From: Eledone cirrhosa
Lineage: Eukaryota
DNA length: 64,000 nt
Direction of reading: 5' to 3'
Assembly (NCBI GenBank): GCA_964016885.1
Contig: OZ024740.1
Coordinates: forward strand, 61,442,001-61,506,000
This document shows, piece by piece, positions 3,350-61,999 of this stretch. The translations under genes and the position numbers were made by a program. The stretch's first letter is position 1. Each line of letters opens with the position of its first letter. Under the pieces are notes generated by a model that saw nothing but the letters and a program-made list of their open reading frames with translations, was not told the DNA's origin and did no database searches.

Positions 3350-4410
3350 CTGATAAAAGAAAAAAAAATTGTCATATATCATTATGATTTAACATCCCTT
3401 TTCCCTGCTAGGAAACAGCATATATTATTAGACATGTGTGTATATATATCATTGTCATTGTCTTTGCATTATACTTGTCAGCATAAGAAATCAAATGTAA
3501 AGCTTTTATGAGACTATATTTTAGAGAAAGATAGGTTTCTCAACACCAACTCGCATATATGTAAGATACAGAGATTGACAAGTCAAACTGTTGAACATAA
3601 AGAAATGTCACAGCCTGTGCAAATAGTGTCAAATGGAAATCATGGATGGACAAGGGGACACATAATATGGAGATGACGAAGGACCGTGACAAGTGGAAGG
3701 ATGTTGTGCTGAATAGGACCCGTCCCACCCTTGCAAGCAGGGAAAAGCGGACGTAAAATGATGATGATGATATATATATATATAAGCTTCCTCACAATTT
3801 CATATACCAGATTCACTCAAAGCATTGGTTAGCCAGGGCAAAAATAGAAAACATTTGCACAAAGTACCAAATCTGAAACCATGTGGTTTCAAAGCAGACT
3901 CCTTAACTAAACAGCTATATATATATATATATATATATATATATATATATATATATATTATTGTTCTGCATCCTCCTGCATTGAACCACCTAGGTACTAT
4001 GACATAACCTGTGTATTTGCTGGCATTAGCGTACATCCGTACGCATATGTTAGTAGATATACTAAATTCTCTCTCTCTCTCTCTCTCTATATATATATAT
4101 ATATTATATATATATATATATATAGCTTGAGCCAATTATCTGTGAAATATATGTAATGTAATAAAAACATTTTAAAGTGAAACTTCGTTATCTTATACTA
4201 TTGTAGCAGTACTGAGTGTTCATATTGGTGCCATCTCCAGTAATCAACAACATTACTGAATAATCTATATGGTAGCACATTGCCTGCCATTGTCTGCTTT
4301 ACAACCTTCCTGCTGGTTAGTGGTCACGTGACAGTCATTTTATTCAAAATTTTCACTGACAACAAACAGCTGGGAATTCTTGACTTGAATTTTATTTCTG
4401 GGCGGAGAAA

Positions 4411-6917
4411 GTCTCATCATCATCATCACCGTTTTACGTCCGTTCTTCAGCGCTAGCATGGGTTAAACGGGTTGTCCTGTTGTGGGCAGTGTCTGGTCGG
4501 CTGACCATGCCTTGCTCATACAGGAACTGATTTGGCTTGATTTCTACAGCTGGATGCCCTTCCTAACACCAACCTCATTTACAGTGAGTGCTGGGTGCTT
4601 TTTCGTGGCGCCTACACGTCCACTTTGCAGTGTGGGCTGGGTGCTTTTTTGCCGTGGGGGGTGTGGGAGCATATTGTCTATATGCGTCAGCTTGTACCCA
4701 TGAGAGGTCGGGTACTCTGTATTACTGCGTGACGCCAGAGGTTATGGTCGTGTGTCATTGCCTTTGAGAGGTATAATTGGGTAAGGTCGGCTTTTATCAC
4801 CTCATCCCAGGTCATCTTGGGTCTCCCCACTCCGCGGTTTCCATCAACTTCTAGTGCGCTGCACCTTTTTATGCAGCTGTCATCCTTCATATGCATCACA
4901 TGTCCATACCAGCGCAACCGCCTCTCCTGCACACAGCATTTGATTCCTCTTATGCTCAGTCTCTCTCTCAATTATTTTATGCTTTGACGTTCACGTATAT
5001 TACAGTTACACATCCATCGGAGCATGCAGGCTTCGTTTCTCTCTAATCTACGTAAGTCTTCCACCTTCAGCGCCCAGGTCTCACTACCATGCAACATTGC
5101 TGTTCGCATACACGCATCATACAGTCTGCCTTTCATTCTGAGGGAAAAGCCTTTTGCAGCTAGCAGTGGTAGTAGTTCCCTAAACTTCTTCCATCCCGTT
5201 CTTACCCTAGTTATTGTACTTTCTGAACACCCACCTCCGCTGCTAATTCGGTCACCTAGGTAGCAGAAGAAGTCTACTGTTTCTACAGAGCCCTCCCAGA
5301 GATTGGTGGTACTTGTTTCCTGTGGCTGTTTGCTGCTTGCTGTCCCAGCACAGCTGCTGCATGTGAAGCCTACATTCTTAATTAAGCTTCCTGAGATCCC
5401 GCTACATCTCTTGTGTACCCATTGTTTGCATTTGGGGCAGAGAATGGAGTTCCTACCTACACCTTTCCTACATACTGAGCAAGGCCATTTCCCTGAGGGG
5501 ATCTGGGTTCTGTTTTCTCGTCTACTTACAAGGACCTTAGTCTTTGTCATGTTGACTTTGAGACCCTTTCTTTCTAGTCCCTGCTTCCAAGTTTGGAATT
5601 TATTCTCTAGTTCTACCATAGATTCAGCTATGAGTGCGAGGTCATCAGCATACAGGAGTTCCCATGGGCATCCGGTCTTAAACTCCTCCGTTATTGCCTG
5701 CAGGACTATGATGAACAGGAGGGGGCTAAGAACAGAGCCCTGGTGGACCCCAACCTGTACGCTAAATTCCTCGCTATACTCATTGCTAATCCTAACTTTG
5801 CTGACTGCTCCCCTATACATGGCTTGTACCGCTTTCACAAGCCATTCATCTACTCCTAGTTTTCTAAGAGCCCACCAGATTACAACACGTGGAACTCTGT
5901 CAAAGGCTTTCTCAAGGTCGACAAATGCCAAGTAGAGTGGCTTACTTTTAGCTAGGTACTTTTCCTGTAACTGCCTCACAAGGAAGAGGGCATCAGTGGT
6001 GCCTCTTCCTGGTACAAACCCAAATTGCATCTCGTCTATTTTCACCCGGTCCCTAATCAACTGTGCTATAACTCTTTCTGTTACTTTCATGACCTGGTCC
6101 ATCAACTTTATACCTCTATAGTTTCCTCTATCTAGTGCATCGCCTTTACCTTTGTAGCAGTTGACAATGATGCTACTGCACCAATCTTTTGGTATGACAC
6201 CTAGTATTACCTGGTTAACAATACGTGTGGTTATAGTGTGACCTACAGACCCAGATGCCTTCAGCATCTCGGCAGCTATACCCGATGGACTGGTTGCCTT
6301 CCCCATCTTCATATCTTTGATTGCCTTACTTACTACGTTGCTGCTGACTTGTACTGCTGGCCCCTCTATAGGGTCTACTTGGAGTAGGGTCTCTTCTTCC
6401 CATGCATTCTCCTCATTTAGTAATCTATCATAATGACTCTTCCATGCATCTTTCTTCTTAGCACTTGTGAGGGCAAGCTCACCTTTATCATTCTGGATAC
6501 ACTTCTCTCCAATGACATCACAACTATCTCTGACACACTGCCTTGCAATCTTGAATACCTCCTGTTTATGGTCCTCACGTTGCAAAACATGCTTGAATTT
6601 TCTATCCTCTGCCTCCTAGCTAAATATACTTGTCGCCTAGCTTCCCTCTTGGTCTCTATGTAATGTACCCTGCTCCCCCCGTTCTTCCATTCTTTCCATG
6701 CCTGTCTCTTGGCCTTAACTGCTTCATCTACCTTATTGTTCCACCACCAAGTCACTCTCCTCCTGCTTGAGGTCTTACTCCAGCCACAGACCTCATCCGT
6801 CGCCTCTAGTAAATTATTTTTTAGGAACTCCCAGTTCTCTTCTCCTGATGATATAGGATTTCTTGCGATACTCTACTCAGAGTTTCGTTATTTTCCTAAT
6901 GAAACTGCAGTAGGGAC
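4411..6917 (+). ncRNA. Type-I hammerhead ribozyme (core 6841-6917) whose stem I is split by the RTE at 4416-6840
   Basis: CTGATGA at 6845, a long stem II (TAGGA/TCCTA, GCGA/TCGT, ACTCT/AGAGT), GAAAC-TGCA-GTA at 6901-6912, then GGGAC pairing with GTCTC (4411-4415). Confidence 0.75.
4416..6840 (-). mobile_element. 5'-truncated RTE LINE: RT plus PHD finger, one frameshift (about 6600) and one in-frame stop (4972-4974)
   Basis: ORFs 4972..6585 and 4687..4971 contain [21 protein letters not shown] and LLYADD. 3' UTR, (GAT)n tail and a TCTC target duplication are present. Confidence 0.95.
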
Positions 6918-7181
6918 ATTAAAGTGAGTAAGTAAAGATTTTTTTTCTTAACTTGTTTGCTTTTTCCATAGTTGATATTATTAGGCTCTGAAGCTGTTAA
7001 TTTTATTAACTTTTTAATAGAACCAAACTCGGTATAAGCTGGACACTGTATGTATGTATCTATACTTGTATAGGGATATGCATTCTTCTCCGTTTTATAT
7101 ATATATATATATATATATATATATATAAATAAATAAAATGAAGAAAAACCAAGGGTAACAACTTAAATCCATTCTTTAATT

Positions 7182-7617
7182 TCTAAATATGTTTCAATAA
7201 AGGTGACAATATTACATGCATATGTAGACAAGAAGTCAATTGGAAATAGTTAATTAGCAATTATTTACACAAGACATAATGGAGGCACATGGCTTAGTGG
7301 TTAGAGGATTGGCCTTGCAATCGAAAGGTTGTGAGTTCAATTCTCAGACCAGGTGATGTGTTGTTTCCTTGAGCAAGACACTTTATTTCACATTTCCACA
7401 GCTGAGTAAACTGGAGCAATGAGATGATAGGGACTGGGGTTCATATCATTCCACTGCAAAGCACCCAGCACTCATTGTAAATGAGTTTGGTGTTAGGAAG
7501 GGCATCCAGCTGTAGAAATCAAGCCAGAATCAGTTCCCGTTCCACCCTTGCAAGCAGGGAAAAAGCGGACGTAAAATGAAATGATAATGCATGTAACACC
7601 TGTATTTCTTCAGTAAA
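7182..7617 (-). ncRNA. Hammerhead ribozyme motif with a very long stem II, interrupted by a SINE; probably decayed
   Basis: After removing SINE 7282-7589 (TSD ATAATG), the minus strand reads TTTA CTGAAGA AATA.AGGTG TTACATGCAT...ATGCATGTAA..CACCT.TATT GAAAC AT ATT TAGA. Confidence 0.65.
7282..7589 (+). mobile_element. tRNA-derived CORE-type SINE with RTE tail
   Basis: A box TGGCTTAGTGG, B box GAGTTCAATTC, CCTTGAGCAAGACACTT core, tail CCACCCTTGCAAGCAGGGAAAAGCGGACGTAAAATGA, TSD ATAATG. Confidence 0.88.
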
Positions 7618-60596: not shown

Positions 60597-60660
60597 TTTT
60601 GCCATCTGAAGAGCTCAGGCTATCATAACTGATAGTCCTCAGTGAAATATGTATAACAGA
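60597..60660 (+). ncRNA. Hammerhead-like motif, decayed
   Basis: CTGAAGA GCT.AGG CTATCA taac TGATAG.CCT.AGT GAAAT AT GTA. Stem II is good and stem I is imperfect. Confidence 0.5.
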
Positions 60661-60917
60661 GTTTTAAATAAACCTGAATCAACTGATTATGGCCTCCAAT
60701 CAAATATACATATAAATATATGTATGTATTTATATATACATATGTATACATATACATACATATATACATATGCATACATATATACACATATCTATACATA
60801 AATACGTATGGATACATAAATACATATAACTCATCTTAGTGTGGAAAATAGACGTTAAACAATGATGGTGATATGTATGTATATGTGTATACATATATAC
60901 AAATGTATACATTTCCC

Positions 60918-61610
60918 TCAAAATGAAAGGCAGACTGTATGATGCGTGTATACAATGTTACATGGTAGTGAGACCTGGGCGCTATCTGTAGAAGACTTGT
61001 GTAGTTTAGAAAGAAATGAAGCCTGCATGCTCCGATGGATATGTAATAGTAATATACGTGAACAGCAAAGCATAAATGAATTGAGAGAGAGACTGAGCAT
61101 AAGAGCAATCAAATGCTGTGTGCATGAGAGGAGGTTGTGTTGGTATGGACATGTGATGCGTATGATGGATGACAGCTGCATAAAAAGGTGCAGAGCACTA
61201 GAAGTCGATGGAAACCGTGGAGTGGGGAGACCCAATAAGACCTGGGATGAGGTGATAAAAGCCGCCCTTACCCAATTACACCTCACAAAGGCAATGACAC
61301 ACAACCGTGACCTCTGGCATCATGCAGTAATACAGAAGACCCGACCCCCCACGGGTACAAGCCGAAGCTGAAGCATATAGACAATATGCCCCCACACCCT
61401 CCCACTGCAAAGTGGACGTGTAGGCGCCACGGCAAAAAAGCACTCAGCACTCACTGTAAATGAGGTTGGTGTTAGGAAGAGCATCCAGCTGTAGAAATCA
61501 AGCCAAAATCAGTTCCTGTATGAGCAAGGCATGGGCAGCCAACCGGCTAGTGCCCACAACAGAACAACCCGTCTATCTAGCATAGAAGATCGGACGAGTG
61601 ATGATGATTA
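60918..61610 (+). mobile_element. RTE 3' fragment, same subfamily as 4416-6840
   Basis: ORF 60946..61371 ends KTRPPTGTS and the 3' UTR matches. Confidence 0.92.
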
Positions 61611-61999
61611 TACATATGTATATATGTATATATATATACATATGCACACATATATATATACACACATACATACATATCATTGTTTAACGTCTATTTTCCA
61701 CACTAAGATGGGTTATATACATAGTTGTTAATACCGAGTTGTTTATCAGTAAGAGTTGTGTTGCAATATCTCAATAAATCGATACCAATACTACACAAAA
61801 CAAAAATAAAAACCAATTGGAGTGTCATATGGTCACTGGACTTTTGCAAACATGGAAGTGTTTGTCTGTGGCATATCAACTCCATCAAATGTCATACTGG
61901 TTACGGTTGTAATGATTGCATAACAGCTCCACACTGGTGTCACTGAAATATGTATTATGCGATAAATATGATTATGTAACATATATTATAACGTTAATT

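Follow-up and report, generated by a model that had tools for sequence, protein, structure and literature searches.

Introduction

Minimal type-I hammerhead ribozymes are carried in the pseudo-long terminal repeats (pLTRs) of metazoan Penelope-like elements (PLEs), where palindromic stems III, pairs on opposite strands, a U3-A8 variant of the core and weak activity in vitro have been described (Cervera and de la Pena 2014, PMC4209133); the U3-A8 variant is also documented, along with a U.U pair at the base of stem II, in PMC3088659. The Hydra clade of PLEs is marked by a DKT motif and a CxCX5C linker (PMC8557442, section 11). Its members target (TA)n tracts and have one-sided tails, and one of them, Hydra-1_Obim of Octopus bimaculoides, carries a hammerhead (Craig et al. 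2021, PMC8557442). PLEs with inverted pLTRs and a TATA box are known, and such palindromes were read as the outcome of self-priming (Arkhipova et al. 2013, PMC3846280). In vitro, the PLE protein of an anole cuts and extends both target strands, starting at two sites that bound the tail; the ribozyme cleaved only with protein, and its cleavage was not needed for insertion (Frangieh et al. 2024, PMC11167929). Among cephalopods, 235 Rfam hammerhead hits were reported for the giant squid (PMC6962438) and 31 recently active PLE families for Octopus vulgaris, the accessible text of the latter study making no mention of ribozymes (PMC13282606). Here we describe a stretch of 64,000 nucleotides (the window) from the octopod Eledone cirrhosa (C1:61442001–61506000, where C1 is contig OZ024740.1 of the 3.0-Gb assembly GCA_964016885.1), which holds eight hammerhead-bearing units, labelled A to H; the window copy of D belongs to a subfamily, D1.

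Eight hammerhead families

The eight units are very probably damaged copies of multi-copy, hammerhead-bearing families that were inserted by Penelope-like proteins through target-primed reverse transcription. Each is a member of a dispersed family, for which a first look, giving lower bounds, returned between 13 and 1,326 candidates (A 1326, B 347, C 671, G 289, D 883, E 13, F 88, H 295). The best loci were aligned (30 each for A, B, C and G, 25 each for D, F and H, and 13 for E), a sample that leans toward the window copy. The majority sequence of every family restores both catalytic boxes (CUGANGA and GAAA), the UH cleavage site and three stems in type-I order, including a palindromic or near-palindromic stem III; the least-decayed natural copies likewise have the three stems in this order. 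All the sites listed in an earlier reading of the window (the original prediction) thus exist and belong to such families, but stem sequences differ entirely from one family to the next, and the single diverse family that had been envisaged is replaced by eight unrelated ones.

Stem II with its loop spans 31 nt in A, 103 in B, 16 in C, 49 in G, 12 in D, 13 in E, 43 in F and 61 in H, so that the maximum of about 125 nt previously proposed comes down to the 103 nt of family B. In the least-decayed natural copies (no more than three shown per family) the long stems II are closed hairpins, with z scores of −1.6 to −5.8 against mononucleotide shuffles, the lowest being that of G. Changes on both sides of a stem were found at four pairs in G and three in B, and at none in A, C, E, F and H; a two-sided change in stem I distinguishes the D subfamilies. 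Of the other copies that cover the core, those agreeing with the majority at all ten core positions number 23/29 in A, 7/23 in B, 16/29 in C, 10/24 in G, 2/10 in E, 11/23 in F and 13/19 in H. The core mismatch rate is slightly below that of the flanks in all seven families tested (e.g., 0.062 versus 0.145 in C and 0.047 versus 0.138 in H), a pattern that fits decay after insertion.

The families also share the insertion hallmarks of PLEs, with a fixed 3' end, a ragged 5' end, partial tandem or inverted 5' copies and, in D, one-sided tails. Among 195 copies examined, 165 reach the 3' terminal motif, and 121 of these have (TA)3 or longer within 30 nt, compared with a background of 15%, which bears out the reported position of the units beside (TA)n tracts. 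In the window, A, B, C, E, G and the minus-strand copy of D, D(−), retain both boxes intact, whereas boxes are broken in F, H and the plus-strand copy, D(+). By a strict type-I descriptor every window copy has at least one damaged stem, the sources of damage being CpG decay, a deletion, and insertions of short interspersed elements (SINEs) or of an RTE element. Most window copies are therefore likely to be inactive, and the term self-cleaving, which had been applied to them, is too strong; self-cleavage is predicted for the source elements.

As in published PLE hammerheads, there is a type-I fold with a short stem I, a palindromic stem III and a U3-A8 core variant, and there are many sequence families per genome, represented mostly by single truncated copies, with pairs on opposite strands (PMC4209133). 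Unlike the helix of 6–8 bp described there, stem II with its loop reaches 31–103 nt in five of the window families.

Links to Penelope-like elements

A genome search with the GIY-YIG domain (Pfam PF01541) gave 10,596 candidates, of which 150 were scored. One locus (L239, C1:145869500–145876500) is a natural complete PLE, with a 938-aa open reading frame (ORF) for reverse transcriptase (RT) and GIY-YIG endonuclease and a U3-A8 hammerhead in both pLTRs, 4,979 nt apart. It also has an inverted 5' piece, and its motifs are ones that we take to be Neptune-like. At other GIY-YIG loci a C3-G8 hammerhead lies about 400 nt past the stop codon. Two further loci may be recorded here: L241 has a 1,096-aa frame at which the descriptor found no hammerhead, and at L240:5510–6419 two head-to-tail units of ~455 nt stand beside a PLE, each with an intact hammerhead and a stem II of ~50 nt. 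The first 50 GIY-YIG loci had no sequence in common with A, B, C, E, G or H; matches to F were short, and only D-type units matched at length.

Three of the window lineages were traced to remnants of PLE ORFs. In L310/L360 a broken ORF with DKT and GIY-YIG ends ~400 nt before a D-type ribozyme of a subfamily with the loop ATCT. ORF remnants of the same type lie upstream of family F in L163 and in seven loci reached by walking upstream, with ~600–750 nt between the end of the ORF and the ribozyme, and one relative of family B lies downstream of a Hydra-like ORF remnant (L054). The DKT motif was seen in L360 and the CxCX5C linker in L359, L363 and L054. F, B and the D superfamily are the 3' ends (pLTRs) of Hydra-like RT/GIY-YIG Penelope elements, the linked ORFs being classed as probably Hydra-like by their motifs; a Nematis type was considered for them and rejected, as the published motifs point to Hydra (PMC8557442). 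With two further lineages forming head-to-tail units without an ORF, the earlier description of the units as pLTR- or retrozyme-like is supported.

Likeness to the Hydra clade (PMC8557442) extends to DKT, the CxCX5C linker, the C-terminal GIY-YIG domain, (TA)n targets, a hammerhead near the 3' end and, often, a U.U pair at the base of stem II. The ribozyme of Hydra-1_Obim differs in sequence from those of all window families, and Hydra was described as a small group, whereas ends of Hydra-like type, as judged by motifs, number tens of thousands here. A Hydra-clade PLE with a hammerhead being already listed for O. bimaculoides in that paper, the epithet uncatalogued can apply at most to these particular families. 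No paper on them was found in a literature search that left Repbase, subscription journals and bioRxiv supplements outside its range. PLE hammerheads are thus known as a kind, and what is new are these PLE and retrozyme-like families in an octopod.

Several observations weigh against this account of the eight units. D1, the subfamily present in the window, is tied to a PLE ORF only via its sister subfamilies; the link of family B is a single locus; and the Hydra-like assignment comes from motifs and not from a tree. For A, E and H no ORF link was found. The strict descriptor had no match in the window, and RNAalifold gave no consensus stem II for A, C, E or F and only part of one for B. Finally, the less-changed cores may reflect some selection on copies, or subfamily structure.

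Upstream, family A continues for 1.6 kb or more, with no ORF recognised in that stretch. A decayed ORF in the 1.1 kb upstream of A was considered and rejected, tblastn with PLE proteins and phmmer with a 71-aa frame having returned only unrelated repeat proteins. As stated in the original prediction, the window has no Penelope ORF; the one trace is a minus-strand stretch at 39486–39611 that weakly matches the C terminus of a PLE GIY-YIG protein (E 0.016), and no ribozyme was found downstream of it.

Head-to-tail units without open reading frames

Families G and C include partial tandems. The 3' end of G is repeated upstream with a period of about 430–450 nt (range 416–466) in five of 30 loci, and three more are lengthened by SINEs; that of C is repeated with a period of about 390–400 nt (range 366–494), also in five of 30. 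At two loci (L097, L105) the repeated part of the G 3' end is 177–188 nt long. Since they repeat their own 3' ends at short, ORF-less periods, G and C are non-autonomous, and their units are too short to hold an ORF for RT and GIY-YIG. ORF-less head-to-tail units with a type-I hammerhead were seen in G, in C and at one locus of E, and not in A, B, F or H; the window copies are single. Another family has an array of seven ~482-nt units, all with intact hammerheads (L399:455–3365); this array is the best retrozyme candidate seen.

These tandems raise the possibility that G, C and perhaps E are true non-LTR retrozymes, in which case two ribozymes would cut the tandems into circular RNAs of 350–450 nt that serve as transposition intermediates. 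Such a reading is compatible with a PLE origin and differs from it in the RNA intermediate. The periods of ~440 nt (G) and ~390 nt (C), an E locus with two copies 354 nt apart, and the L399 array speak for it, as do unit sizes that match those of published retrozymes (PMC7229834), with which the units share an ORF-less, AT-rich make-up, head-to-tail order at 350–480 nt, a type-I hammerhead and co-occurrence with PLEs (PMC7229834; Li et al. 2026, 10.64898/2026.07.22.740005). The difference from non-LTR retrozymes (Cervera and de la Pena 2020, PMC7229834) is that G and C occur mostly as scattered partial tandems; the majority of copies are shorter than two units and have one ribozyme each, its stems are of the minimal PLE type, and several copies have the inverted 5' pieces typical of PLE insertion. 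The circular intermediate being putative, we consider a retrozyme identity for these families possible, although rather less probable than plain PLE-driven insertion of pLTR units.

Features of the window and the host gene

The coordinates of the units and of the host gene are collected in Table 1. The gene is PLEKHA7-like, its large exon at 36.4–38.1 kb matching proteins of O. vulgaris (66%), O. sinensis (65%) and Argonauta (53%). In addition to the 13 clear exons, tblastn gave one weak exon at 60188–60238 (E 0.49). Five exons are joined within a single contig of 5,884 nt from sequencing run X4, and as it holds a spliced contig, this run behaves like RNA.

Table 1. Hammerhead units and host-gene features of the window (positions count from the first nucleotide of the window).
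Feature	Position	Strand	Evidence
PLEKHA7-like host gene, mapped exon span	3215–47664	−	tblastn; five exons also in one X4 contig
Host exons, first to seventh by coordinate	3215–3358, 8525–8629, 8969–9118, 10292–10423, 13953–14069, 18759–18893, 25565–25660	−	
Host exons, eighth to thirteenth by coordinate	36447–38117, 38441–38575, 39022–39123, 44903–44986, 45735–45812, 47614–47664	−	
Family G, 5' part, ending in the original 5' strand of stem I	4272–4415	+	alignment of family copies
RTE-type long interspersed element (LINE), 5'-truncated, with RT and PHD finger, inserted directly 5' of the G catalytic box	4416–6844	−	ORF 4972–6615; Pfam RVT_1, PHD
Family G, 3' part; two intact boxes, stem I of 4 bp, stem II of 49 nt, stem III palindromic	6845–7126	+	family alignment
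Family B; boxes 7613–7607 and 7195–7192, 103-nt stem II, stems I and III damaged	7121–7907	−	family alignment
Family C; boxes 40603–40597 and 40580–40577, perfect 6-bp stem II, stem I with 7/8 pairs	40405–40673	−	family alignment
Family D1, head-to-head palindrome; tail on left arm only	46144–46604	.	sequence, family alignment
Family E, old and low-copy; boxes 56699–56693 and 56679–56676, stems I and II damaged	56494–56778	−	family alignment
Family F; both boxes mutated (56982–56988, 57030–57033); 3' end of Hydra-like PLE	56935–57094	+	family alignment, upstream walk
Family A; boxes 60606–60612 and 60644–60647 intact, stem I broken by two CpG-type changes	60475–60713	+	family alignment
Family H; first box lost by deletion, second box 61945–61948; family stem II 61 nt	61776–62024	+	family alignment

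Unit G is the best-kept copy, and four of its stem I pairs survive the split by the inserted element, which we read as RTE; the unit begins at ~4272 and not at 4125, as had been proposed. Stem II of the B copy is interrupted by a SINE (7282–7583) with a 6-nt target duplication, and stem III of C is shortened to 2 bp. The motifs reported on both strands at 46.2–46.6 kb are real copies, both damaged: D(−), with its box at 46526–46520, has a SINE of ~270 nt (~46245–46511) within loop II, and D(+) (46535–46557) has a G5-to-A change in its box at 46535–46541. The site given as 56978+ is a copy of hammerhead family F that had been parsed wrongly, a nearer GAAA at 57001 lying inside stem II; its first box reads TTGATGA and its second has decayed from GAAA to AAAA. 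Unit H adds an eighth to those previously listed.

The claim that the units occupy host introns holds for G, B, C and D. Units E and F are intronic only if the weak exon is real, and A and H lie 5' of it. One may ask whether the host has kept these ribozymes to cut or regulate the PLEKHA7-like pre-mRNA, as B, C, D(−) and E are sense to the host transcript and, in C, the two boxes and the greater part of stems I and II survive. This is very unlikely, given that no window copy passes the strict descriptor, that mutations have struck boxes and stems alike, that orientation is mixed (four motifs sense and five, including that of G, antisense), that the X4 contig is spliced across the intron containing C, and that the density of motifs in the window is like that of the rest of the genome. 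The units in host introns are likely to be passengers that decay neutrally.

One tRNA-headed SINE family occurs in or beside three hammerhead units (7282–7583, 40050–40400 and 46245–46511), and a weak Rfam tRNA match at 40331–40394 falls in the second of these stretches. Pieces of RTE-type LINEs with a PHD finger after the RT lie at 4972–6872, 12127–13344, 23026–24140, 58765–59241 and 60918–61371. A minus-strand frame of 968 aa at 26911–29817, with APE endonuclease and RT domains, appears CR1-like to us and is flanked by a 133-nt repeat at 26794–27051. A lysine-rich frame of 131 aa at 52343–52738 (minus strand) has no Pfam match and lies outside the mapped host exons.

Palindromic D-type insertions

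A set of 56 D loci was chosen by core pattern alone (30 D1 and 26 D-type, with four partner arms dropped). It comprises 25 head-to-head palindromes, 13 long copies, in which CCAAT and TATA-like boxes are present, and 18 others. The tail, which was scored for D only, is on exactly one arm in all 25 palindromes, and in 23 of them the inverted arm starts no more than 13 nt from the first box, so that the arms are joined just 5' of the ribozyme. Of the 33 loci (out of 54 for D) with the commonest junction, 17 have the tail on the longer arm, 11 on the shorter, two on both and three on neither. Longer against shorter arm, the counts are 9:8 for loci picked by BLAST and 8:3 for those picked by pattern (one duplicate was dropped from this count and one label was set by hand). 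In long copies the first box is preceded, at a distance of 36 nt, by a TATA-like box, and with the usual spacing transcription would start 6–11 nt upstream of the first box. Loop II varies among D-type copies and the core is fixed. An earlier view of D as a fixed palindromic element was rejected when the unbiased set revealed varied junctions and long non-palindromic copies.

A tail on either arm suggests priming on both target strands. Simple fold-back cannot add a tail to the second arm where the first lacks one, which leads us to two primings, one per target strand. By analogy with published PLE work, the endonuclease would nick AT-rich DNA and reverse transcription would start at one or other of two neighbouring sites, between which the tail lies; most cDNAs would stop early and leave behind a pLTR with its ribozyme. 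In the case of D, short RNAs would begin at the 5' strand of stem I, driven by a CCAAT/TATA promoter that the pLTR carries. Priming would take place on each of the two target strands, with a different start site used on each, and microhomology would let the ends of the resulting cDNAs join, giving head-to-head palindromes with one tail. Ribozymes would process the RNA of the source element, either acting as dimers, if stem III is a palindrome, or aided by protein. The centre of the palindrome could also be flipped if palindromic copies were mobilised again. The 8:3 bias toward the longer arm in the pattern-picked D1 set speaks against two-strand priming as the whole account, and fold-back priming may also contribute.

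Like PLEs described before (PMC3846280, PMC11167929), D has head-to-head inverted copies, a tail at one end and a TATA-like box in the pLTR, and priming on two strands would match the in vitro behaviour of the anole protein (PMC11167929). Unlike them, the D insertion is often just the ribozyme unit of ~100–160 nt doubled, with clustered junctions and a tail on either arm. The summed depth of X4 contigs on a long D-type copy rises about 100-fold at the ribozyme, compared with about 10-fold in run X1; contig depth does not measure expression, and sister subfamilies contribute to the sum, for which reason nothing is drawn from this rise.

D could alternatively be taken for a miniature inverted-repeat transposable element moved by a DNA transposase, its hammerhead likeness being incidental. 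Short length, inverted arms, TA flanks and high copy number would all suit such an element; the asymmetric ends (with the tail on one arm in 25/25), the variation of junctions among copies, the long non-palindromic copies that run into a PLE ORF, and a loop II that varies beside a fixed core already contradict it, and the chance that it is right is slighter still than for retention by the host.

Motif statistics and genome-wide abundance

Taken alone, the window is weak evidence for hammerheads. It has 40 CTGANGA boxes, compared with about 30 in shuffled sequence, and a loose type-I descriptor found six matches against 1.06 ± 0.95 in 100 local dinucleotide shuffles. Only three of the six are sites of the original prediction (6845+, 40603− and 56699−). 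Two others (5648− and 23864−) were rejected as YADD codons of RTE reverse transcriptases, which spell the first box and so cause false matches in RTE pieces. The match at 21516 on the plus strand, with a 32-nt stem II, had not been listed before. No hammerhead family appeared among the 66 Rfam matches to the window at E ≤ 1, and of six window cores or units that were folded, five had z weaker than −2.3 and only the D palindrome (z −6.6) stood out. With strict and Rfam searches negative and loose matches few, it is the copy families that provide the proof.

The genome was sampled with 40 pieces, each 10 kb long and taken from large contigs at round coordinates (400 kb, 0.013% of the assembly). 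The strict descriptor found 26 motifs in 15 pieces, seven of them in one tandem array, which corresponds to one per 15 kb, or by our count about 17 insertions. An exact search with a 27-nt D-type core pattern gave 26,475 matches in the genome and none in the control. As strict motifs and D-type cores are this dense genome-wide, the window is not special. Extrapolation from the 400 kb gives an estimated total of 1–2 × 10^5 motifs, compared with ~2,000–9,000 in Schistosoma, coelacanth and Xenopus (PMC4209133), for which the descriptors differ. The notion that the motifs are chance matches in AT-rich, repeat-rich DNA, to which RT codons in two of the six loose matches, the lack of an Rfam match and window copies folding singly no better than shuffles might lend colour, is already refuted and has virtually no probability left, every unit being multi-copy with a family majority that makes a better hammerhead than the window copy, and the 26 strict motifs standing against none in each of 20 shuffles and one in a reversed control.

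A second abundant palindromic mini-family, with 16 arms in the 400 kb and none in the window, has its tail motif in common with D (L378, L380, L382, L383, L396, L397, L400, L401 and L406; also L248:1–220 and 5078–5276). Its long copies have a U3-A8 first box and a stem II of ~60 nt, and its palindromes are cut inside stem II and so are without the first box.

Discussion

The combined evidence allows a wider proposal, which we put forward tentatively and with slightly more doubt than confidence. The genome would hold ~10^5 intact hammerheads, among the densest sets known and including minimal PLE ribozymes with a stem II of up to 103 nt, and the D superfamily would be a natural footprint of PLE integration, in which a pLTR promoter gives rise to RNAs of ~100–160 nt whose start falls exactly at the ribozyme; these would be reverse-transcribed on both strands of the target, beginning at two fixed sites, and the copies linked end to end. 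The tiny D-type insertions, of which there are tens of thousands, are countable in vivo evidence on the origin of inverted PLE ends, for which self-priming (PMC3846280) and two-strand priming (PMC11167929) are the competing explanations. If true, the D model solves second-strand synthesis without fold-back and explains the head-to-head repeats of PLEs.

From the density of the motifs and the length of their stems II it follows that cephalopod ribozymes are undercounted by standard hammerhead screens. The units are of a known kind and the window is ordinary for its genome, so the value for specialists lies in the density, the long stems II and the countable pattern of tails and junctions. Cephalopods are known for heavy RNA editing, and the intronic palindromes are plausible double-stranded substrates for it.

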